Assembly (NCBI GenBank): GCA_017454945.1
Contig: JAFTCA010000121.1
Location: 118 to 64,117, forward strand
Reading direction: 5' to 3'
Length of the DNA: 64,000 nt
DNA from: Bacteroidales bacterium
GTDB taxonomy: Bacteria > Bacteroidota > Bacteroidia > Bacteroidales > WCHB1-69
Shown: positions 7,615-40,594 of the stretch, piece by piece
Layout of the letters: the number at the start of each line of letters is the position of its first letter
Position numbering within the stretch: the stretch's first letter is position 1
Notes under the pieces: generated by a model
Told to the model about the DNA's origin: nothing
Seen by the model: the letters and a program-made list of their open reading frames with translations, nothing else
The model's database searches: none
Translations under genes and position numbers: made by a program

Positions 7615-10428
7615 TTACCGACGGGCAGCGTCTATCAGTTTGTTGCCTTCGGCGCGAGCGTTGTCCACCAGTTTGTTGGCTTTCTTCTGCGTTTCGGCGT
7701 TCAACTGGGCTGCTTTCTTTTCGGCCTCGGCAATCGCCAGGTTGGCGGCCGTCTGCTTGGCAGCCTTCTCCAGCGGGTTCTTGGCGGCATCTATCGACTT
7801 CTGCGCCTCGGTGCGGGCGGCCTCAATCAGCTTCTCGCCTGCTTTGCGCTGTGCCTCCACCAACTCATCGGCCTTCTGCTGGGCAGCGGCAATCAACTCG
7901 TCGGCCTTCTTCTGAGCCTCCTCAATGGCCTTGGCCTTCGCCTCGTCCACCTTCTCCTTCACCTGCGTCTTGGCATCATCCACCACACCAGCCACGGCCT
8001 CCTTCATCGTCGAGCGGGCCTGGTCGAGTCCTACCGAAACCGTGGGCTTGTTGAGCGTGCCACCAATCTTAACAGCAAACTTGACCTCATCCAACGAAGA
8101 GGCGTCAAAACCTTTAAGTTTGGCCTTCTGTGCCAGCGATTTGGCCAAGTTGACCGTCTCGGTGCCCATCACCGACGAGGGCATCGTCACTACAGCCGTG
8201 TAATTCAGCGACTTGTCCAAGCCGATACTACCAGTCTCCACATCCACTTTTCCTTGCGACATCTTGAACGAGAAAGGTTGTGTAATCATCTTACCGTCCT
8301 TCACCTTGTATTTCACCTGCGCACCTTTGATGGGAACAGCTTTCACATTAGCCAGCTTCAACGCCTCGTTAATCATTTTGAGCGTGCCGCTGTTCATGAA
8401 TTGTATGTCAAGCAGGCCCAGCGTGCCTTCGGCACTCATGGTTTGGTAATCTATCGCCATAGTCTCATCCAAGAAACTGTTGGCCTTCATGGTCATCGAG
8501 ATGTTACCTGCGGCCGTCTTGAACACGGGCAGGAACTTATCGAACAGATGGAAACTCTCGCACAACTGACGTGCCGAAATATTCGACACACTTAAACTGG
8601 TCACATCTGCAAGTCCTTGGTTATAATCCGGATTGGAATAGGCGCCGTCGGCCTTGATGCTACCCGAGAAGAGGTCGGCCGACAACTGCTGAACGTGCAA
8701 CTTCGCATCGCGGATAGAACACAATAACACAGCATTTTGCATCTTCACATCATCATACTGCAAATTCTTCACATTCATCTTGGCTGTCATATCCAGATTG
8801 GCGGGCACCTTGAACAGCGATTGCGACGTAGTGTCGGAAGTCGTATTGTCAGCTTCTTCATCACTGGCAAACAACTCATTAATATTCAACCTGTTGGAAT
8901 TAGCCGTCAACGACCCTTTCAGAGTGCCGTTGCTGAAGATATAGGGTATATAGTTTTCCACTTTTCCCTTAATTGAGAAGTCGTTCTTACCCACCTTGGC
9001 ATTCAGGTTCTGCAAATCGGCGTAAGCTGACGTGAATTGCAACTTAGCCGTCGATACAGCCACATCCTGGTCAAACAAGTCCACATTCTGCATCAGCAAA
9101 TCCTTGACAGACATCACACCCGACGCTTTGAACTTGTTGTATTGCTTCTTTTCCAGATAGGAAAGGCGACCGGCCAATGAGACATCCATATTGAAGATAC
9201 CGCTCATCTTCTGTGTTGCCTCCAACGGATAAACCTTCTTGATTTGGCTCAAGTCGAGGATACCCTTCAGCGTGGCGGCCACATCGGGGTCGGAAATGGG
9301 CGTGGCAACATGGGCAGTTAAATCAAACGGATTGTTGATGATGACAAAGTGGAACTGGCGAATGTCGGCCACCATCTTGTCGAGACTGCCGCCAGGACTC
9401 TTCACCTCAGCGTCGATGTTAATCTTATCGACCGAAGCGGGCAGCGACGGGTAGCGGAACATAGCGTCACTGATTTTCAAATTGGCATCGAACGACGGAT
9501 AGGTATCGCCCACCATCTTACCTTTGGCAAAGGCCGTCAGGGCCACCTTGCCCGAGGTCTTGATATCCTCGAAATTCTTGGCGTAGATAGCAGGAATAAG
9601 GGAGATGATATTCTTGAAATCGTTCTTGGGCAAATTCAACTTAAGATCCATATCCATACCATTCTTAAGCATGGTTACCCATCCTTGCAGACTGAATACC
9701 AGCGCATTGATAGAAATCTCATTGTCCTTTACTGTATATTTTTTCTTGTTGAAATCGGCATCGATGGCGGCTTTCAGTTTCAGTTTGGCCGACGACAAAT
9801 ACTTGATTCCGTTGTATTTAAAGTCAACCGACGGCGTTGTGAAAGCAGTTTGCAACGTGGTAAAGTCGCTGGAGAGGTTGCCGCTGAGCGAGAAGTCGAG
9901 GTCCTTCACTTTGGCAGACATATTGCCAGGCACATCCTTGTAGGAAATGTTGGCGTTGTTCAGCACAATCTTGTCAAACTTAAGGTTGAAATGACTCTCG
10001 CCATCATCCTTCTTTTCATCGTCGTTTTTCATAATATCCCAGTTGGAGCCTTTGGCCGTGGTGATAAGGTTCACTTTGGGATTATTGATAATCACTTTTT
10101 TGATTTTATAGGTATCTGAGAAGATACTAAAAAGGTTGACACTGGCCATGAAATCATCCACTTTGAGCAATGTAACGCCCTTAAACTGACCCACATTCTC
10201 CACAGTTACACCCTTCAGCACCAGCGTAGGATTGGGGAAAGTGCGGAACAGCGACAAGTGAAAGTTTTCCATCGTCACCTTGGCGTTCAGAAAGCGATCC
10301 GACTCTTTCAGCACGCGCTGTGCGATTTTATTTTGGAAACAGAGAGGCAACACCAGCAGCAATACCAAAATGCCAAGCAGCGAAAAACCTCCTATCATCA
10401 AACCTTTTTTCAGTTTTTTATTTTTCAT
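7615..10428 (-). CDS. AsmA family protein
   Basis: 937 aa. N-terminal TM anchor, Bacteroidota AsmA-type N-terminus (LSLFRTFPNPTL..., NWDIMK), beta-rich body and Ala/Lys/Glu-rich helical C-terminus. Confidence 0.85.
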   Translation of the reverse strand: MKNKKLKKGLMIGGFSLLGILVLLLVLPLCFQNKIAQRVLKESDRFLNAKVTMENFHLSLFRTFPNPTLVLKGVTVENVGQFKGVTLLKVDDFMASVNLFSIFSDTYKIKKVIINNPKVNLITTAKGSNWDIMKNDDEKKDDGESHFNLKFDKIVLNNANISYKDVPGNMSAKVKDLDFSLSGNLSSDFTTLQTAFTTPSVDFKYNGIKYLSSAKLKLKAAIDADFNKKKYTVKDNEISINALVFSLQGWVTMLKNGMDMDLKLNLPKNDFKNIISLIPAIYAKNFEDIKTSGKVALTAFAKGKMVGDTYPSFDANLKISDAMFRYPSLPASVDKINIDAEVKSPGGSLDKMVADIRQFHFVIINNPFDLTAHVATPISDPDVAATLKGILDLSQIKKVYPLEATQKMSGIFNMDVSLAGRLSYLEKKQYNKFKASGVMSVKDLLMQNVDLFDQDVAVSTAKLQFTSAYADLQNLNAKVGKNDFSIKGKVENYIPYIFSNGTLKGSLTANSNRLNINELFASDEEADNTTSDTTSQSLFKVPANLDMTAKMNVKNLQYDDVKMQNAVLLCSIRDAKLHVQQLSADLFSGSIKADGAYSNPDYNQGLADVTSLSVSNISARQLCESFHLFDKFLPVFKTAAGNISMTMKANSFLDETMAIDYQTMSAEGTLGLLDIQFMNSGTLKMINEALKLANVKAVPIKGAQVKYKVKDGKMITQPFSFKMSQGKVDVETGSIGLDKSLNYTAVVTMPSSVMGTETVNLAKSLAQKAKLKGFDASSLDEVKFAVKIGGTLNKPTVSVGLDQARSTMKEAVAGVVDDAKTQVKEKVDEAKAKAIEEAQKKADELIAAAQQKADELVEAQRKAGEKLIEAARTEAQKSIDAAKNPLEKAAKQTAANLAIAEAEKKAAQLNAETQKKANKLVDNARAEGNKLIDAARR

Positions 10429-33373: not shown

Positions 33374-34111
33374 ATGACGACAATGTTTCTCTCCATTCTC
33401 TTTTCTATCTTAGGCTTGGTCCTCCTTGCCAAAATTCTTCCTTCTAAAGGTAAAGCTGGGGAAAGGCGTGTGGCAAAGATTCTATCAAAGTTACCCGAAG
33501 AAGAATACAAAGTAATCAACAACCTACTTTTTAGCCAAAACGGACGAACTACGCAAATTGACCATGTAGTTGTTTCCAAATACGGCATTTTTGTTATTGA
33601 AACGAAATTCTATAACGGTTGGATTTATGGTGGGGATAATAGCGAATATTGGACACAAAATATCTATGGGAAAAAATATCAATTATGGAATCCCATTCAT
33701 CAGAACCAAGGACATATTCGAGCTCTTAAAAAACTTCTAAACAAAAATTCTTCCAACCTGTTCATTTCAATTGTCGCCTTCTCACAGCAAGCCACTCTTA
33801 AGATTAAAGGGAATGGACTTGTTATATATTGGAACCAATTAAATAATGTCATCTATTCATTTCACCAAGAAATACTTTCTTCTGAACAAGTACAAAAAGT
33901 TTATCTTGCCTTAATTGACGCTAATATAGACTCTAAAGAGAACCAAAAACAACATGTTCGCAATGTAAAGGCACATATTTATAGAAATCAAAATGCTGTT
34001 GCCAACAGACGTTGCCCACATTGTGGAGGACATCTTGTCCTGCGAAACGGGAAATACGGCAATTTTTATAGATGCAGCAATTACCCTCGTTGTAAATACA
34101 CCTACAAATAA
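33374..34111 (+). CDS. NERD nuclease-domain protein with C-terminal topoisomerase-type C4 zinc ribbon
   Basis: GKAGERRV, QIDHVVVSKYGIFVIETK, NPIHQN..H and C-terminal CPHCGGHLVLRNGKYGNFYRCSNYPRC. AT-rich compared with its neighbours. Confidence 0.9.
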   Translation: MTTMFLSILFSILGLVLLAKILPSKGKAGERRVAKILSKLPEEEYKVINNLLFSQNGRTTQIDHVVVSKYGIFVIETKFYNGWIYGGDNSEYWTQNIYGKKYQLWNPIHQNQGHIRALKKLLNKNSSNLFISIVAFSQQATLKIKGNGLVIYWNQLNNVIYSFHQEILSSEQVQKVYLALIDANIDSKENQKQHVRNVKAHIYRNQNAVANRRCPHCGGHLVLRNGKYGNFYRCSNYPRCKYTYK

Positions 34112-34219
34112 AACCGAGCATACTTATACTCCTTGTTAACACAAAAATATCACATCGCTTCATTTATCCAATTGTGGCATCTGCGGCGCATATCAAACTT
34201 GTTTCATTGAAGCATTCTG

Positions 34220-34319
34220 GCGGCGCCGCATGGAATTCGATTGGGCTTCCCGTTCAGGGGTTTCGGTCGCTTCGCTTCCTCAACCCCTGGCTACCATTCT
34301 GAAACCCCTAACGGGGTTT
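34220..34319. repeat. cluster of REP-like hairpins
   Basis: gcggcgccgc 34220-34229; caggggtt 34255-34262 ...cgcttcgct... aacccctg 34282-34289; aaacccc-taac-ggggttt 34302-34319. Confidence 0.55.
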
Positions 34320-34453
34320 GGAACCAAGGAAAACAATGACTTATCAAAACAAATATTCATCGCTCGATGATGAAATTTCCTTGTGTCAAATAAATTGTTT
34401 AATTTTGTACACTAATTTTTCTGGATACGACTCATCTTTACAAGAAGGTACTT

Positions 34454-35131
34454 ATGGGCGAAATTAAAATCATAGAAATCAAAAAAAGCGTCTTTGCTGA
34501 TAACGAACAAGACGCCAATAACCTCCGTAAAGAGCTTAAAGCCAAAGGAATATACCTTCTTAATTTGATGTCGGCACCAGGCAGTGGCAAGACCACCACC
34601 CTCATCCAGACCATCAATCGCATCAAAGATAAGTTGAACGTGGCCGTGATGGAAGCGGACATCGATAGCGACGTAGATGCCATCAAAATCAAAGAAGCCA
34701 CCGGAATTCCTTCCATACAACTGCACACTGGCGGCATGTGCCACCTTGATGCCGAGATGACCCGCCAAGGTCTGGACAATGTGACAACAGAAAATATTGA
34801 CCTCATTATACTTGAGAATGTAGGCAACCTTGTCTGCCCCGCCGAATTTGACACCGGCAGCTGCGGCAATGCCATGATTCTTTCAGTTCCCGAAGGCGAC
34901 GACAAGCCTCTCAAATATCCCTTGATGTTCTCGGTTTGCGATTTGGTAATCATCAACAAAACAGATGTTTTGCCCTATTTCGACTTTGACATGGAAAAGT
35001 GCAAAAAATACATCCTCCTACGCAACCCTCGCGCCAAGGTAATTCCTATCAGCGCCAAAACTGGCGAAGGCGTTGACGATTTTGCCAACTGGCTCGTCAA
35101 CGAAGTAAAGACTTGGAGATGTGAGAAGTAA
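34454..35131 (+). CDS. hypB: nickel-insertion GTPase HypB
   Basis: NLMSAPGSGKTT, GGMCHLDA, ENVGNLVCPAEFDTG, SVPEGDDKPLKYP and NKTD. A TAATTTTG promoter box lies at 34400-34407. Confidence 0.95.
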   Translation: MGEIKIIEIKKSVFADNEQDANNLRKELKAKGIYLLNLMSAPGSGKTTTLIQTINRIKDKLNVAVMEADIDSDVDAIKIKEATGIPSIQLHTGGMCHLDAEMTRQGLDNVTTENIDLIILENVGNLVCPAEFDTGSCGNAMILSVPEGDDKPLKYPLMFSVCDLVIINKTDVLPYFDFDMEKCKKYILLRNPRAKVIPISAKTGEGVDDFANWLVNEVKTWRCEK

Positions 35132-35196
35132 CTTCTATTTCCCCAAGTCCATCATCCAAACTCAAAATCAACAACTTACAACCTAAATACATCATT

Positions 35197-38016
35197 ATGC
35201 CTGAGATGTCCACTAAATTTGTCCCTAAACATAAAGGCGACAAGAACCCGAATCCCAAACTGTTGAAATTTGTCCAAAAGGTGACTGACCGTATTCCTGG
35301 CAAATTAAAAATGACCAGCGATGCTCCCGAATATTGGGGTTTAGCGTGCATCTTCGAAGATGAGATGGATGCCGTAACCCGCGAAGCCTCCTTAGATCTG
35401 CTGCTGGACATGCTGCCCAAAAGAGGCTTGAAAGTCCGCGAACACAGAACCTACCAACTGCTTCACCAGTGGAATGCCGAAAAGCACTACACACCTGACG
35501 ACCAGTCGTTTGACGAATTGCTGGACAAACTTTCCTACTTTGGCATGTTGGAATACGACTATGGCGATAAATACACCAAAGAGGGACCTGTACCAGGCAC
35601 TACTTACAACCGCGAGGACAGGATTTACTGGGTGCCCATGTTCGTGCCTGGCTCTGCTGAATACACCAATATGAACACCGACCTGATGGATAAACATCCC
35701 GAATTAGCGATGTTCTTCGAGCGTATGACCTTCCTTCCTCTGGAAAAGATCACCCCCAGCATTCCTATGGGCGGTGCAGGCATCGGCATGCATGTCATCC
35801 CGGTGGAAAAAGCCATCTCTATGGAAAATCAAAGTGTTGACATTGAACATATTTCATACTGGCACAAACGCTACGAGGGACATCTTGGCGTTGGCATTTG
35901 CTCGTGCCGTTATGGCCGCAAAAAACTCGATGAAGGCTGCGCCGACGACTACCGCGATTGGTGCATCGGCGTGGGCGACATGGCCGACTATCTTGCAGAA
36001 ACTGGCCGAGGCCACTATATCACTTACGACGAAGCCATGTCTATCCTCAAGAAAGCGGAAGACCACGGCTTTGTACACCAAGTGACCAACATTGACGGTG
36101 AAGGCAAGATCTTTGCCATCTGCAATTGTAACGTAAAGATTTGCAATGCCTTGCGAACCTCACAATTATTTAACACACCCAACTTGTCGCGCAGCGCCTA
36201 CGTGGCCAAGGTGGATCCGAAGAATTGTGTGGCATGCGGCCGTTGCGTAGAATACTGCCCTGCCGGCGCTGTCAGACTGGGACAGAAACTCTGCACAAAA
36301 CAAGGTGAGCAGACATATCCCAAGCAAGAGCTGCCCGATGCCAAGAAGTGGGGTCCGCACAAATGGGATGAGGACTACCGTGACAAGAACCGCATTAACT
36401 GCTACCCCTCTGGCACAGCACCTTGCAAGACAGCTTGTCCCGCACATATTGCCGTTCAGGGCTACTTGAAAAAGGCCGCAGAGGGCAAATACACTGAAGC
36501 GCTGGAACTTATCAAGCGAGAAAATCCGTTTCCCGCCGTCTGTGGCCGCGTATGCAACCGCCGCTGTGAAGACGCCTGCACGCGAGGCACTATCGACCAG
36601 CCCATCGCCATTGATGCCGTTAAGAAATTCATTGCCGAACAAGATCTCCATGCCGAAACACGCTTCATTCCCGAGGTGAACATTGCCTCAAATGTGCAAG
36701 ACCATTGGGAGGAGAAGATTGCCATCATCGGCGGCGGCCCCGCTGGCTTGAGCTGCGCCTACTATCTGGCCACAATGGGCTACAAACCCACTGTTTTTGA
36801 GAAAAATGAGATTTCTGGCGGCATGTTGCAATATGGCATCCCTTCATACAAATTGGACAAGAAAGTTATCAAAGCCGAGATTGACATCATGCGCGAAATC
36901 GGCGTAGAAATCAAGACTGGCGTTGAAGTAGGAAAAGACATTACCATACAGCAACTTAGAGAGCAAGGCTACAAAGGGTTCTACGTGGCCATCGGCTGTC
37001 AGGGCGGCAAACTTCCCGGCATTGCTGGCGAAAAACTGCCTGGCACCACCACAGCCATCGACTTCTTGCACAACTCAAATTGCGGCACGCAAGTCAGCGG
37101 TAAGGTTGTTGTCGTGGGTGGCGGCAATGTGGCCATCGATGCAGCCCGCGTGGCCATGCGCAGCGGCGCCGAGTCGGTTACCATGCTATCACTCGAAACC
37201 GAGGACATCATGCCCGCCTCTTTGGAAGAACGCCACGAAGCCCGCGAGGACGGCGTAATCATCAATCCGGGCTGGGGCCCGAAAGAAGTACTTGGAACAG
37301 ATAAGGTTAGCGGCATCGTTTTCAAGAAATGCACCTCCGTTTACGACGCCAACCACCGCTTTGCACCGCAATACGACGAACACGACCTCATCACTCTGGA
37401 TGCCGACATGGTTATCTTCGCCATCGGCCAGACGGTCATCTTGAAAGATCTGTTGAAAGACACCAAGGTGGAATTCTTCCGCGGCGTATATCCCGTAGCT
37501 GACAAGCTCACCTACCAGACTGCCGAAGAAGACATCTTTGTTGGCGGCGACTGCTACACAGGACCCAAGTTTGCCATCGACGCCATCGCCGCTGGCAAAG
37601 AGGCTGCAGAATCACTGCACCGCTACGTTCAGCATGGCCACATGACCATCGGACGCAACCGCCGCGACTTTATCGAACTTGACAAAGAGAACATTGTTGT
37701 AGAATCGTACGACAACTCCTCCAGACAAGTGGAAGGTATTGAAAGTAAAGAAGATAAATTCAGCGAGTACACCTTAACCCTGACCGAAGAGCAGGTACGA
37801 AAAGAGACCGCCCGCTGTCTGAGCTGCGGAGCTTCGGTAGTGGATGAGAACCGGTGTATTGGCTGCGGCATCTGCACAACCAAGTGCGCCTTTGATGCTA
37901 TCCACCTCTTCCGCGAACATCCCGAGGCGTCGCACATGGTGACCTCCGAAGACAAGTTCAGCGCCATCCTGCCGTATATGCTCAAGCGGACGGCCAGAAT
38001 TATCTTTAAGAAGTAA
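35197..38016 (+). CDS. multi-domain Fe-S flavoprotein oxidoreductase (GltD/NfnB-like core plus extra N-terminal domain and ferredoxin motifs)
   Basis: CVACGRCVEYCP; PCKTACP...CGRVCNRRCEDAC; FAD motif IIGGGPAG; NAD(P) motif VVGGGNVA; ARCLSC; CIGCGICTTKC. Confidence 0.9.
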   Translation: MPEMSTKFVPKHKGDKNPNPKLLKFVQKVTDRIPGKLKMTSDAPEYWGLACIFEDEMDAVTREASLDLLLDMLPKRGLKVREHRTYQLLHQWNAEKHYTPDDQSFDELLDKLSYFGMLEYDYGDKYTKEGPVPGTTYNREDRIYWVPMFVPGSAEYTNMNTDLMDKHPELAMFFERMTFLPLEKITPSIPMGGAGIGMHVIPVEKAISMENQSVDIEHISYWHKRYEGHLGVGICSCRYGRKKLDEGCADDYRDWCIGVGDMADYLAETGRGHYITYDEAMSILKKAEDHGFVHQVTNIDGEGKIFAICNCNVKICNALRTSQLFNTPNLSRSAYVAKVDPKNCVACGRCVEYCPAGAVRLGQKLCTKQGEQTYPKQELPDAKKWGPHKWDEDYRDKNRINCYPSGTAPCKTACPAHIAVQGYLKKAAEGKYTEALELIKRENPFPAVCGRVCNRRCEDACTRGTIDQPIAIDAVKKFIAEQDLHAETRFIPEVNIASNVQDHWEEKIAIIGGGPAGLSCAYYLATMGYKPTVFEKNEISGGMLQYGIPSYKLDKKVIKAEIDIMREIGVEIKTGVEVGKDITIQQLREQGYKGFYVAIGCQGGKLPGIAGEKLPGTTTAIDFLHNSNCGTQVSGKVVVVGGGNVAIDAARVAMRSGAESVTMLSLETEDIMPASLEERHEAREDGVIINPGWGPKEVLGTDKVSGIVFKKCTSVYDANHRFAPQYDEHDLITLDADMVIFAIGQTVILKDLLKDTKVEFFRGVYPVADKLTYQTAEEDIFVGGDCYTGPKFAIDAIAAGKEAAESLHRYVQHGHMTIGRNRRDFIELDKENIVVESYDNSSRQVEGIESKEDKFSEYTLTLTEEQVRKETARCLSCGASVVDENRCIGCGICTTKCAFDAIHLFREHPEASHMVTSEDKFSAILPYMLKRTARIIFKK

Positions 38017-38026
38017 ATGTTGAGAG

Positions 38027-38374
38027 ATGCACGAACTAGGAATTGTCTTCTATATTATCAAAAACGTGAAACAGGTAGCTGAGGAAAACCATGTGGACCA
38101 TGTTTCTAATGTAGTGATGGATATTGGCGAGGTTTCGACCATTATCCCCTCCTACCTCACCGATTGTTGGCGCTGGGCTGCCGACAAGGAGACTCTTCTG
38201 AAAGGGTGCAAACTCACCATCAACACCATTCCCGCGGTCACTTTGTGCGACGACTGCCATCAAGAATTCGAGACTGTGAAACATGGCAAGACCTGTCCTC
38301 ACTGTCACAGCGAAAACACATGGCTTCTACGCGGCAACGAAGTAGAAATTAAAGAGTTACAAATCGAAAGTTAA
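38027..38374 (+). CDS. hypA: nickel metallochaperone HypA/HybF
   Basis: N-terminal MHE Ni-binding motif and two CxxC motifs (CDDC, CPHC). Confidence 0.93.
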   Translation: MHELGIVFYIIKNVKQVAEENHVDHVSNVVMDIGEVSTIIPSYLTDCWRWAADKETLLKGCKLTINTIPAVTLCDDCHQEFETVKHGKTCPHCHSENTWLLRGNEVEIKELQIES

Positions 38375-38403
38375 AAGTTAATCATTTAAAACATTATAGA
38401 ATT

Positions 38404-38751
38404 ATGTCCTGCTTTTTAGTTCCTTTAACACAAGCACTGGTAACCAGTGCCTACCGAAAAAACAACGCAACGGCTATCCATTCCGACAAAGCTTCGGCGC
38501 TCAAGCGGAATGTTCCTGCCTTGGAGAAAATGCTTTGGGGCGGTTCGGTCATGCTCATTGTTGACCACATCATCAATGGCGAATTGAGTTGGAGATTCCC
38601 CTTCTTCACCGCACTGAATGACGGCTGGGGAATATTCCTCCACGAGATTCTTGCCGTGGGCGTACCGATGTCGCTGGCACTGACAGCCGTTTGGGCTATT
38701 TATGCCGTTTTGAAAGAAAAACACAAGAAAACAACCTCAATATCTATTTAA
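38404..38751 (+). CDS. small hypothetical membrane protein
   Basis: 115 aa; MSCFLVP..., LEKMLWGGSVMLIVDHIINGE and a C-terminal TM segment. Inside the hyp operon. Confidence 0.75.
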   Translation: MSCFLVPLTQALVTSAYRKNNATAIHSDKASALKRNVPALEKMLWGGSVMLIVDHIINGELSWRFPFFTALNDGWGIFLHEILAVGVPMSLALTAVWAIYAVLKEKHKKTTSISI

Positions 38752-38770
38752 TAACTTAAATTTATTTATT

Positions 38771-39874
38771 ATGTTTTTTCAAGTTTATGGGGCTAACGCC
38801 CTCGCCCAATGGGGAATGCTACTCGTCGTTCTCGTTGGCTTGATTCTTTTCAACGAGTTTGCCCGTCGTACGAAAATTGGCGGCGCCATCACGTTCTTTG
38901 TTATTCCGTTGGCACTTACGGTTTACTTCGTTGCCATTGCTGTCGGAGCTCGTATGGGTGCCGAATGGGCCGTGACCAACCAAACCCACGTGTACATGAA
39001 CGGCTGGTTCCACTACGCCAAATTGTACGCTGCACTTACAGGCTGTATCGGCTTTATGATGATTAAATACAAATGGGGCATCGGTGCCAAACACTGGTTC
39101 AAACCCTTCCCCTTTATCATCGTGGCTATTAACATCCTCATTGCCGTAGTTTCCGACTTCGAATCAGCAGTTATGGGCTGGCACAAATGGTGGCTCTCAA
39201 GCGAAGGCGTATGGCTTTATGGTGGCTGGCACAACGTGTTCAACGGCATCGCCGGTATCCTCAACATCTTCTGTATGACCGCATGGTGGAATGTATTCCC
39301 CTCAAAAGACAAGAAGGATATGATCTGGGCCGACATGACCTGGGTATTCATCGTTGTTTATGACATCTGGAACTTCGCCTACACTTACAACTGCTTGCCC
39401 ACCCACTCATGGTATTGTGGTATCGCCCTGTTGCTCGCTCCTACCGTTGCAGCTCTGCTGTGGAACCGCGGTGGTTGGATCCAGAATCGTGCCAACACAC
39501 TGGCTATCTGGTGCATGTTTGCTCAGGTGTTCCCGCTCTTCCAAGAGACTTTCTTCAACGGCAAACAATTCTTCTCATGGGCAGTTCTGCCTACGCAGTA
39601 CGTCAACGGCATCGAGACCGTTAACGCCATCTATGCTGCATCGGGTCTGGGTGATGAAGTCATTGCTCACACCACCGTTGCTGCCGAAGGTGTAACTGCC
39701 GCTAACCCCAACGCTATGCTGTTCATCAGCGCCCTGGCTTTGATTACCAACGCCATCGCTCTGTGCTACATCCTCGTTCAAGCTAAGAAACGCCACATCA
39801 ACCCGTACAAGGAAGATGTATTCATCAACCAGAAGTACTACAAAGACGCTGTGGCTCGCGCCGATATGGAATAG
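38771..39874 (+). CDS. multi-pass membrane protein, DUF5692-like
   Basis: 367 aa; WFHYAKLY, INILIAVVSDF, DMIWADMTW, YDIWNFAYTYNC and WIQNRANTLAIW. Family name recalled, not searched. Confidence 0.75.
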   Translation: MFFQVYGANALAQWGMLLVVLVGLILFNEFARRTKIGGAITFFVIPLALTVYFVAIAVGARMGAEWAVTNQTHVYMNGWFHYAKLYAALTGCIGFMMIKYKWGIGAKHWFKPFPFIIVAINILIAVVSDFESAVMGWHKWWLSSEGVWLYGGWHNVFNGIAGILNIFCMTAWWNVFPSKDKKDMIWADMTWVFIVVYDIWNFAYTYNCLPTHSWYCGIALLLAPTVAALLWNRGGWIQNRANTLAIWCMFAQVFPLFQETFFNGKQFFSWAVLPTQYVNGIETVNAIYAASGLGDEVIAHTTVAAEGVTAANPNAMLFISALALITNAIALCYILVQAKKRHINPYKEDVFINQKYYKDAVARADME

Positions 39875-39892
39875 TATCGTCCAACAGTTTAT

Positions 39893-39928
39893 AAAAAAAA
39901 CGCCATCGGAAACCGATGGCGTTTTTTT
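39893..39928. terminator. bidirectional intrinsic terminator
   Basis: A8-cgccatcgg-aaa-ccgatggcg-T7, between convergent genes. Confidence 0.85.
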
Positions 39929-39949: not shown

Positions 39950-40594
39950 TCACTTATTTTCATCTTCTTCTTTAGGACGAAGATAACCTATTGAATGAGA
40001 ATGCTGAACAACTGGGGTTTGTAACTCAGCCAAAGCCACACTGATTGCATCCAACTGAGCTTGAGTGCTTTCGTTAATATCGTTCTGATCCCGAAGAATG
40101 TCTTCAATATCAAGTTTTAAATCATCAAAATCCTTGCGCAATTTTCCTATCTCAGCAGCAATGCCAGGCAAAGATAAAGTGACTGACAGACGATGAATTT
40201 CAGTAAAGACTCGCATAATACCAATATTTACTTGAATGGCCAAGGGAGATCGCAATACACTGCTTAACATAGCAACACCATTTTCGGTAAAAGCATACGG
40301 AAGTTTACGCAACCCCTTGCTTGCAAAATTGGATGTCGCAAATTGCGATATCCAATTTTGCTGTTCGGACATATTCGCCATGTTTGAACAAATAAGTTGA
40401 GATCTTATAAATTCAAGCTCTTCTTTTGTTAATTGAAACATAAAATCTTCAGGAAATCTTTCATGATTGCGCTTGACCTGTTCGTTAAGTCTTCTTGTTT
40501 CTACTTGATATAATCTTGCGAGATCAAAATCAAGCATAACACGCTTTCCCCGAATAATATAAATTAGATTATGAATGTGTTCTATTGACTCCAT
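39950..40594 (-). CDS. ORF6N domain-containing protein (second in the window)
   Basis: [46 protein letters not shown] and [20 protein letters not shown]-rich. Confidence 0.92.

Follow-up and report, generated by a model that had tools for sequence, protein, structure and literature searches.

A HypA/HypB-associated reductase operon of the IsrA family in a rumen Bacteroidales bacterium, and the case for nickel

A stretch of 64,000 nucleotides of Bacteroidales DNA, hereafter the window, carries five genes in which those of two nickel metallochaperones, HypB and HypA, enclose the gene of a 939-residue iron-sulphur flavoprotein and are followed by two genes for membrane proteins. The flavoprotein is a full-length homologue of the IsrA 'clade 9' reductases, related over its whole length of about 900 residues and beyond the core of about 500 residues shared with GltD and NfnB. 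We favour, at a probability of roughly 0.6, a reading in which this is an IsrA clade 9 operon where HypA and HypB would load nickel into a site reducing carbon-carbon double bonds, where the membrane proteins would handle the substrate, and which would have its origin in Bacillota; in this enzyme we infer both the metal, nickel, and the identity of the substrate. The first-pass annotation had presented the locus as a possibly uncharacterised metal-dependent redox system, a claim to discovery that has to be given up: the proposal of an IsrA-family flavoprotein as a nickel client is that of Kronen et al. (2023, mSystems), who reported IsrA homologues adjoining HypA (73%), HypB (56%) and DUF5692 (40%) (PMC10134865), so that the question itself was posed in 2023 and not opened by the present locus. 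The literature searched to 2026 gave neither metal analyses nor enzyme assays for any IsrA-family protein, only proteomics and transcriptomics. New here are the tight Bacteroidales clade among Bacillota, the gene block of Subdoligranulum variabile, the small protein seemingly peculiar to Bacteroidales, the occurrence of DUF5692 in genomes lacking HypA, and the presence of the operon in rumen metatranscriptomes.

The operon and its transcription

Five open reading frames lie on the + strand at the positions first assigned to them, with a promoter-like box 5′ and a hairpin terminator 3′, both read from the sequence.

34401-34408, + strand: promoter-like box TAATTTTG, 46 nt 5′ of the hypB start codon, matching TAnnTTTG
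34454-35131, + strand: hypB, short-type HypB metallo-GTPase, 225 aa
35197-38016, + strand: IsrA-family ('clade 9') Fe-S flavoprotein reductase, 939 aa
35899-36144, + strand: codons of the candidate catalytic and metal site ('cluster V'), C235, C237 (CSC), R238, C256, H294, C309, N310, C311 (CNC) and C316
38027-38374, + strand: hypA, nickel metallochaperone, 115 aa, PF01155
38404-38751, + strand: small membrane protein without family match, 115 aa
38771-39874, + strand: DUF5692 polytopic membrane protein, 367 aa, PF18948
39901-39928, no strand assigned: intrinsic terminator hairpin, 9-bp stem, 3-nt loop and T7 tail

The genes are separated by 65, 10, 29 and 19 nt. The Bacteroidetes -7 consensus is TAnnTTTG, which TAATTTTG fits as a promoter-like box of that type; a sigma-70 scan gave nothing relevant near it. 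The terminator, read by eye as cgccatcgg-aaa-ccgatggcg followed by T7, looks bidirectional, with a run of A 5′ of the stem, and is not among the hairpins listed by a generic terminator scan. A riboswitch or leader 5′ of hypB was sought in Rfam at E <= 1, with nothing credible found. The structured segment at 34182-34318 (z = -3.3) belongs to a dispersed repeat, of which the genome has five other copies, and is hence not specific to the operon. The operon is transcribed in the bovine rumen: metatranscriptomes from there have contigs for each of the five genes, and three of the gene junctions are bridged.

The reductase and its amino-terminal site

Compared by BLASTP with IsrA of Acetobacterium wieringae, the reductase gives 46% identity and 735 bits over 898 aa (residues 43-908 against 23-878). 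The sequence used (P0334, from GCA_902175055.1) is IsrA itself, since it lies in that assembly within the published order isrA-hypA-hypB-fdx-hypA. The Pfam domains of the window protein are Fer4, Fer4_20 and Pyr_redox_2, with a further Fer4 at the carboxy terminus. Along the chain one can distinguish an N-domain peculiar to the family (aa 1-335), a 2x[4Fe-4S] ferredoxin whose halves are C344-C354 and C887-C897 and, from domain matches at the sequence level, an NfnB/GltD-like module at about aa 400-812 with two [4Fe-4S] clusters, FAD and an NAD(P)H site. The four canonical [4Fe-4S] motifs of IsrA, like its FAD/NAD(P)H module, thus appear to be present in the protein: cysteines 344/347/350/354, 410/414/449/453/457/461 and 874/877/887/890/893/897 are invariant in eight homologues of 37-56% identity. 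The neighbours expected of clade 9, hypA, hypB and DUF5692, are all three in the operon, the last in accord with the published neighbourhood statistics; as with IsrA, hypA and hypB share the operon with the reductase in a genome devoid of [NiFe]-hydrogenase and hypCDEF.

There are differences from IsrA, nonetheless. The window reductase stands outside the IsrA/Pelotomaculum (isoprene reductase) subclade, in a Bacteroidales/Oscillospirales clade at a tree distance of about 2 substitutions per site, and it lacks the 26-aa insert of IsrA (near residue 756-782). Its operon is ordered hypB-reductase-hypA, with a single hypA where the IsrA locus has two, and in place of the 350-aa ferredoxin paralogue of that locus it has DUF5692 and the 115-aa membrane protein of Bacteroidales. 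The host is a rumen Bacteroidales, whereas that of IsrA is an acetogen. Because of the separate subclade, the missing insert and the non-acetogenic host, the substrate is probably not isoprene.

Relatives in the PDB (the StnA-like 8oh5_C, 9bov_A and 9n5u_A, and NfnB) reach only aa 345-880 of the reductase, with E between 1e-48 and 3e-89. Over this region it aligns, through two [4Fe-4S] clusters, FAD and the NAD(P)H site, with the NADPH-dependent Fe-S flavoproteins of the NfnB/GltD type (PDB 5jca, 4ylf, 2vdc); unlike them, it has no NfnA or GltB partner, it adds a 335-aa amino-terminal Cys6 domain and the split ferredoxin, and its operon carries dedicated nickel chaperones. The added domain matches no Pfam family in residues 1-335 in a scan to E = 10. 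Residues C235-x-C237, R238, C256, H294, C309-N310-C311 and C316, which include a Cys6 site with two CxC motifs already described in IsrA (PMC10134865), are invariant both in the alignment of eight sequences (37-56% identity) and in one of 32 sequences, where the Bacillota members are 33-38% identical to the window protein. All these residues fall within one alpha/beta sub-domain (aa 216-324) of an AF2 model of moderate confidence (pLDDT 72.6), and the domain with its invariant Cys6/His site is confined to the IsrA family.

[quoted passage not shown] The resemblance stops there, without similarity of sequence (a PDB-sequence profile search yielded nothing, best E = 0.022) or of fold (Foldseek against the PDB, best E = 0.77, with a faint winged-helix likeness of the MarR/PadR kind in the first sub-domain only). 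In the mechanism that we favour, electrons would enter the reductase at NAD(P)H/FAD and run via four cubane clusters to the amino-terminal site, into which HypA and the GTPase HypB would load Ni(II), forming a nickel or Ni-Fe-S centre. This centre might then reduce a C=C bond, either unactivated or conjugated, in a hydrophobic substrate, much as presumed for IsrA, which would turn isoprene into methylbutenes.

The nickel chaperones and their probable client

The metal motifs initially noticed in the two chaperones, CH and CPAEF in HypB, MHE and two CxxC in HypA, are all found. HypB matches TIGR00073 with 238.8 bits (cut-off 121.2), and scores 231 against NF007775, the model of the long E. coli type, under its cut-off of 385; with an amino terminus devoid of a Cys- or His-rich metal site, it is of the short type, like that of H. 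pylori. It displays a P-loop GSGKT, C96-H97, ENVGNLVCPAEF at residues 121-132 and NKTD at 168, and GSGKT, C96-H97, C128 (of CPAEF) and NKTD are kept in at least 95% of 79 orthologues. HypA has 108.7 bits against PF01155 (cut-off 28.9), and 82.9 bits against the equivalog TIGR00100, slightly under the cut-off of 88.1, which counts against the nickel-client reading. Besides the amino-terminal MHE it has CDDC at residue 74 and CPHC at residue 90, the four cysteines C74, C77, C90 and C93 of this CxxC...CxxC zinc site being invariant in 70 orthologues. The CH...C metal site in the G-domain of HypB, together with the MHE nickel site and the zinc site of HypA, are those of the proteins maturing [NiFe]-hydrogenase and Helicobacter urease; in contrast with these systems, the genome, where hypA and hypB are each single-copy, is without hypCDEF, hydrogenase or urease, and the presumed client is a flavoprotein.

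The first reading of the window had remarked that known nickel enzymes were missing from it, and this holds for the whole genome: a profile search with PF00374, PF00449, PF03063, PF09861 and PF01924 gave 0 matches for each, neither [NiFe]-hydrogenase nor urease, CODH or LarA being found, and HypD and HCP likewise being absent. Even sampling of the order placed the reductase in only 2 of 301 Bacteroidales genomes, too few to be informative, and the co-occurrence survey was therefore moved to the genomes behind related loci. There, the hydrogenase large subunit (PF00374) was found in 0 of 50 other operon-bearing genomes and HypD (PF01924) in 0 of 52, control genomes matching as expected, while urease gave no convincing match in the 50, only two marginal ones of 22-23 bits; CODH and LarA were searched in the window's genome. 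The surveyed carriers are metagenome-assembled, so that these absences are not absolute.

The gene neighbourhood tells a similar story. Of 80 related loci, taken at species level, nearly all keep the gene order although their flanking genes vary, so that the arrangement is not due to chance. More distant Bacillota homologues have hypA next to the reductase at 7 of 7 loci, many of them without a local hypB, a feature that counts against the nickel-client reading. Taken with the genome and the 50 carriers devoid of other clients, the constant adjacency of hypA lends comparative support to the early suggestion that the enclosed oxidoreductase is the client of HypA and HypB. We consider it very improbable that the chaperones serve some unrecognised nickel enzyme encoded elsewhere, and that an ordinary NfnB/GltD-like flavoprotein only shares their location or regulation. 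An assembly of 124 contigs, 96.65% complete, could miss a gene, and the set of enzymes searched was a defined one that did not comprise Ni-glyoxalase, acireductone dioxygenase or Ni-SOD; however, we know of no need for HypAB in these three, the adjacency of hypA and the reductase is kept across phyla at about 90 loci whose flanks are unrelated, no tested carrier has HypD or the hydrogenase large subunit, and the domain with the invariant Cys6/His site is found in no other family.

That the metal should be other than nickel, HypA and HypB inserting Zn, Fe or Co, or acting as a scaffold for an all-iron Cys6 cluster in an enzyme that would be an Fe-S-only reductase, is a reading that we hold unlikely. 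HypB-type G3E GTPases and HypA bind zinc too, and NiCoT (PF03824) and CbiM (PF01891), the two nickel importer families searched for, are absent from all 52 carrier genomes. Six cysteines in two CxC motifs, moreover, resemble double-cubane or P-type ligation, and the site could hold a double-cubane or P-cluster-like all-iron cluster, as pointed out in 2023 (PMC10134865), which counts against nickel. In favour of nickel, the amino-terminal MHE of HypA and the CH...C site of the HypB G-domain, which bind nickel in characterised homologues, are retained, and the scores are those of genuine HypA and HypB rather than of CobW/ZigA-like paralogues. To our knowledge there is also no precedent for HypAB acting with a non-nickel metal in vivo.

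The two membrane proteins

The 115-aa protein has no Pfam or NCBIfam match even at E = 10. Its 1457 homologues, the few named ones being labelled 'hypothetical protein [Bacteroidales]', suggest that it is found only in Bacteroidales; they share a motif LExMLWGG..ML.VDH...GE, with C3, E41, D54, H55 and E60 among the conserved residues, and the gene is missing at about 7 of the 80 related loci. The larger protein scores 428.4 bits against PF18948 (DUF5692), more than the gathering cut-off, in an alignment that takes in positions 3-303 of the 304 in the profile. It is rich in Trp, Tyr and Asn, its AF2 model (pLDDT 70) has nine long predicted helices, and its invariant polar residues include K84, D129, N158, N165, D183, D188, D198, N201, C208, H212, Q238 and R240; it has no relative in the PDB, either of fold (Foldseek) or of sequence (phmmer). 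Metatranscriptome contigs from cattle place both membrane-protein genes on the same RNA as hypA.

The transport role suggested in the first-pass annotation could be read as nickel uptake, with a DUF5692 permease and a 115-aa accessory making the operon a self-contained unit of import, chaperones and enzyme. The absence of NiCoT and CbiM in 52 of 52 carriers would agree with this, as would the invariant D129, D183, D188, D198, C208 and H212 in the DUF5692 helices, the E41, D54-H55 and E60 of the small protein, and co-transcription with hypA. Yet that absence leaves nickel entry unexplained without proving import by these proteins, neither of which matches PF03824 or PF01891, and DUF5692 has neither an HX4DH-type signature of NiCoT nor a fold match to any transporter, its Trp/Tyr-rich make-up being better suited to hydrophobic ligands. 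DUF5692 is present where HypA is absent (genomes G043, G077, G089 and G224), HypA also being missing in four of the five strong DUF5692 carriers that lack the reductase; it stands alone in Latilactobacillus curvatus, adjoins proteins of about 195 aa, Crp-like by eye, in two Bacteroidales, and occurs at 0 of 7 distant reductase-hypA loci. Its presence in Bacteroidales devoid of HypA and in Latilactobacillus argues against a role specific to nickel, and DUF5692 is probably not a nickel device. We therefore regard uptake as rather improbable, and less likely than the role assumed in our favoured reading, where DUF5692 and the small protein would most likely handle a hydrophobic substrate or anchor the enzyme to the membrane.

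A particular version of substrate handling deserves mention. The membrane linoleate isomerase of the BBI/LAI type in Bifidobacterium breve is encoded by a 993-bp gene and has nine transmembrane helices (PMC9636412, PMC12048573). Compared by description, DUF5692 agrees with BBI in size and in its nine predicted helices only. One may imagine from this a two-step, membrane-associated biohydrogenation module, in which DUF5692 would be a BBI-type isomerase turning polyunsaturated fatty acids into a conjugated diene (e.g. conjugated linoleic acid, CLA), and the flavoprotein a nickel-containing, HypAB-matured, IsrA-like CLA reductase, an activity which, we believe, has not yet been assigned to a gene. 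We find this scenario improbable; if true, some of the hydrogenation of fat in the rumen would be the work of Bacteroidales, and a new class of nickel enzymes would be defined.

Origin and significance

The first-pass annotation had suggested a Bacillota origin, and phylogeny fits: the sequences from rumen Bacteroidales form a tight clade inside a tree dominated by Bacillota, sister to Subdoligranulum variabile (SH-aLRT 97), then to Acutalibacteraceae (99). S. variabile TSDC17.2-1.1 (OY725877.1, 193.4-198.3 kb) has, unannotated in the record, the same four genes hypB-reductase-hypA-DUF5692 in the same order as the window, with identities of 72%, 61%, 52% and 55%, respectively. This block differs from that of the window in lacking the 115-aa membrane protein, in having a divergent GntR/FCD regulator upstream and in its Bacillota host. 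Rumen Bacteroidales probably acquired the four genes from a Bacillota donor resembling Oscillospirales. A 'Candidatus Limiplasma' carrier (L050) was discarded as a sign that the Bacteroidales-type operon also resides in Bacillota, since it is a 5-kb contig at 88% identity and most likely a binning error.

We can now see what the locus brings to the nickel hypothesis. A Bacteroidales clade whose genomes are without the known clients of HypAB offers one of its cleaner comparative arguments, and S. variabile, a cultivable relative with the same gene block, is a possible experimental system. If HypA and HypB do load nickel into the flavoprotein, a new class of nickel enzymes would exist in the IsrA family, and with it a biological catalyst for the hydrogenation of C=C bonds that are unactivated or conjugated. 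More than 8000 close relatives were scored, and anaerobes of the rumen and gut harbour the family in great numbers; as the operon also turns up in rumen metatranscriptomes, the substrate of the family could matter to ruminal lipid or terpenoid metabolism.

Operon layout and kinship of the flavoprotein

Five open reading frames, all on the forward strand and separated in gene order by 65, 10, 29 and 19 nt, are bounded by an upstream gap of 342 nt and by a hairpin terminator:

34454-35131, +: hypB, 225 aa
35197-38016, +: Fe-S flavoprotein, 939 aa
38027-38374, +: hypA, 115 aa
38404-38751, +: membrane protein without family, 115 aa
38771-39874, +: DUF5692 membrane protein, 367 aa
39901-39928: terminator cgccatcgg-aaa-ccgatggcg-T7, read from sequence

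The co-oriented genes, promoter box and terminator reported in the first-pass annotation are all present in the window. The promoter-like box, TAATTTTG at 34401-34408, matches the Bacteroidetes -7 consensus. Upstream of it, a structured stretch (34182-34318, fold z = -3.3) is one copy of a dispersed repeat, perhaps of REP or MITE type, with five more copies at 74-80% identity in the same genome (contigs C54, C36, C5, C86 and C115). The gene immediately upstream (33374-34111, +) joins a NERD nuclease-related domain to a C4 zinc ribbon of topoisomerase type at the C-terminus, and is not kept beside the operon in relatives. Downstream, the product of a convergent gene (39950-40594, -) combines an ORF6N (KilA-N-like) domain with a coiled-coil tail, and the gene shares the operon's terminator, which appears bidirectional; such proteins are frequent in mobile or phage-derived DNA.

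The metal motifs previously read in both chaperones are indeed there, and are conserved in sets of 70-79 orthologs: GSGKT, C96-H97, C128 in CPAEF and NKTD in HypB; MHE, C74xxC77 and C90xxC93 in HypA. HypB reaches 238.8 bits on TIGR00073 (cut-off 121.2), and since it misses the threshold of the long E. coli-type model, it is of the short type, devoid of an N-terminal metal site. HypA reaches 108.7 bits on PF01155 and 82.9 bits on TIGR00100, slightly below the cut-off of 88.1.

Residues 345-880, approximately, of the flavoprotein align with NfnB/GltD-type and StnA-like fusion proteins in the PDB (best E = 3e-89), while residues 1-335, its N-domain, found no match in Pfam, PDB sequences or PDB folds. 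Over 898 aa the protein is 46% identical (735 bits) to IsrA, the putative isoprene reductase of Acetobacterium wieringae, which we located (P0334) in GCA_902175055.1 with its gene order as published. Alignments were made of eight full-length homologs (37-56% identity) and of 32 N-domains; in the latter, the Bacillota rows share 33-38% identity with the window protein. C235, C237, R238, C256, H294, C309, N310, C311 and C316 are invariant in both alignments, as are, in the full-length one, the cysteines of all four canonical clusters. An AlphaFold2 model of the N-domain (pLDDT 72.6, pTM 0.78) splits the domain in two: aa 20-188 are helical and resemble a winged helix, and aa 216-324 form an alpha/beta part predicted to hold every invariant cysteine and histidine. 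Homology to IsrA together with this site therefore places the flavoprotein, almost certainly, in the published IsrA family. The two proteins nevertheless fall in separate subclades, and IsrA carries a 26-aa insert that the window protein lacks. The name 'isoprene reductase' should not be applied to it, and our confidence in any specific substrate is low.

Distribution, origin and expression

The N-domain family counts 893 representatives at the 50% identity level, and close relatives are encoded in at least 579 GTDB species-representative genomes. The best 80 of these all belong to ruminant or gut Bacteroidales assemblies (87-95% identity) and, on every contig of sufficient length, maintain the order hypB-reductase-hypA-(115-aa protein)-DUF5692, while the window's flanks (NERD nuclease, RodA, M1 peptidase) are not maintained. 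The 115-aa gene is missing from about seven of these loci (L016, L023, L034, L047, L048, L049, L061), DUF5692 following hypA directly, and precedes hypA in one (L012). As the reductase occurs in only 2 of 301 evenly sampled Bacteroidales genomes, the operon must be considered patchy within the order.

In maximum-likelihood trees the Bacteroidales reductases form a tight clade (SH-aLRT 100, inner branches about 0.1 or less), with Subdoligranulum variabile as sister (97) and then an Acutalibacteraceae sequence (99), the whole nested in a Bacillota-dominated family. S. variabile (OY725877.1) displays the same gene order, with 72% identity for HypB, 61% for the reductase, 52% for HypA and 55% for DUF5692, downstream of a divergent GntR/FCD regulator. 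Trees and block order thus support the Bacillota transfer suggested earlier: the four-gene block would have passed between Oscillospirales-like Bacillota and rumen Bacteroidales. A Bacteroidales-type operon in a Bacillota MAG (L050, DAIOUZ010000218.1, 'Candidatus Limiplasma sp.') was considered as a recent cross-phylum transfer; with a 5-kb contig and an N-domain of 88% identity, a binning error is most likely.

Taken together, three bovine metatranscriptomes yielded contigs for each of the five genes at 90% identity or more, some pieces at 99-100%, and single contigs cross the hypB/reductase, reductase/hypA and hypA/115-aa junctions. This fits co-transcription in the rumen, with the caveat that the contigs stem from mixed relatives and may include DNA carry-over. 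Within DUF5692 (38968-39588) summed contig depth reaches about 260-335, far more than over the remainder of the operon; in the rumen, relatives of DUF5692 may be strongly expressed independently of the reductase.

Partners of the reductase and the membrane proteins

Seven distant homolog contigs were inspected (IsrA, Pseudobutyrivibrio, Lachnospiraceae-like, a second A. wieringae paralog, Acutalibacteraceae and two further representatives). hypA lies downstream of the reductase in all seven, between a few nucleotides and about 1.3 kb away; hypB is found in two, one with two tandem copies, an upstream TetR gene in two, and DUF5692 in none. hypA is the tightest partner of the reductase. On a metagenome contig (L104, reductase P0143), a tandem pair of CobW/HypB paralogs (216 and 221 aa) separates reductase and hypA. 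The 885-aa A. wieringae paralog and its hypA (L085) sit among genes for a B12-radical SAM enzyme, an acyl-AMP ligase, a BcrAD/BadFG-type activase and a MaoC-like dehydratase, a setting that hints at acyl-thioester or lipid-like substrates for other members of the family.

The predicted structure of DUF5692 contains nine long helices (pLDDT 70), and neither sequence nor fold comparison with the PDB gave a relative. It occurs in 9 of the 301 sampled genomes, with strong matches lacking the reductase in five (G043, G077, G089, G189, G224), four of which lack HypA altogether; in Latilactobacillus curvatus a 'DUF5692 family protein' stands alone. DUF5692 therefore has a function independent of nickel chaperones. 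This weakens the view that DUF5692 imports nickel, despite the absence of both NiCoT and CbiM from all 52 carrier genomes, which would favour it. DUF5692 may be the family of BBI, a membrane linoleate isomerase from Bifidobacterium breve; published descriptions of BBI (993-bp gene, nine transmembrane helices; PMC9636412, PMC12048573) would fit such a link.

In G077 and G189 the DUF5692 gene adjoins one for a protein of about 195 aa, Crp-like by eye. In G043 (contig C126, L100), of the same family as the window's genome, a genome with neither reductase nor HypA, it is preceded by a lipoprotein-like gene of 701 aa on a contig of 4.4 kb, and is 81% identical to the window's copy. In G224 (contig C36, about 8143-10099, L099) it appears split, or broken by an in-frame TAG, into adjacent frames of 274 and 375 aa, the second with additional C-terminal sequence.

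The 115-aa protein, the sole component without outside context, conserves C3, E41, D54-H55 and E60. The few named among its 1457 homologs are Bacteroidales, so that it looks like a Bacteroidales addition.

The flavoprotein as a proposed nickel client

Nickel chaperones beside this family were described by Kronen et al. (2023; PMC10134865). There, the isoprene-induced operon of A. wieringae ISORED-2 encodes the 901-aa oxidoreductase IsrA, two HypA, one HypB and a ferredoxin, in a genome without [NiFe]-hydrogenase and hypCDEF; among 988 'clade 9' homologs of IsrA, neighbourhood frequencies were 0.73 for HypA, 0.56 for HypB, 0.40 for DUF5692 and 0.21 for TetR. The authors put IsrA forward as the nickel client, with an N-terminal Cys6 site of two CxC motifs ('cluster V') as possible ligand (PMC10134865). 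Follow-ups found in the literature from 2023 to late 2026 are transcriptomic: in Pelotomaculum under isoprene, hypA rose 373-fold and hypB 585-fold. Metal analysis and enzymology were looked for in that literature and not found, and the nickel dependence of the IsrA family is inferred.

The first-pass annotation had noted the lack of [NiFe]-hydrogenase, urease and Lar genes in the window. Profile searches, which returned the expected matches in control genomes, extend this to its genome (2.62 Mb, 96.65% complete; one copy each of hypA and hypB): [NiFe]-hydrogenase large subunit, urease alpha, CODH/HCP, LarA and HypD gave no match. Neither the hydrogenase large subunit nor HypD was found in 50 other species-level carriers, where urease gave two marginal matches (22-23 bits) in long amidohydrolase-sized frames. 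A known nickel enzyme always encoded elsewhere, the outcome set against the proposal at the outset, is not what the carriers examined contain.

These absences, in the window's own genome for every known client tested and in some 50 others for hydrogenase large subunit and HypD, strengthen the case for the enclosed flavoprotein as metal client. It is the best-supported reading; its novelty does not stand, the hypothesis being already published (PMC10134865). We give a probability of roughly 0.6 to HypA and HypB loading nickel into the flavoprotein's N-terminal site. The locus represents a distinct Bacteroidales subclade of the IsrA family, and it adds the absences in carrier genomes to the nickel-client hypothesis published for that family.
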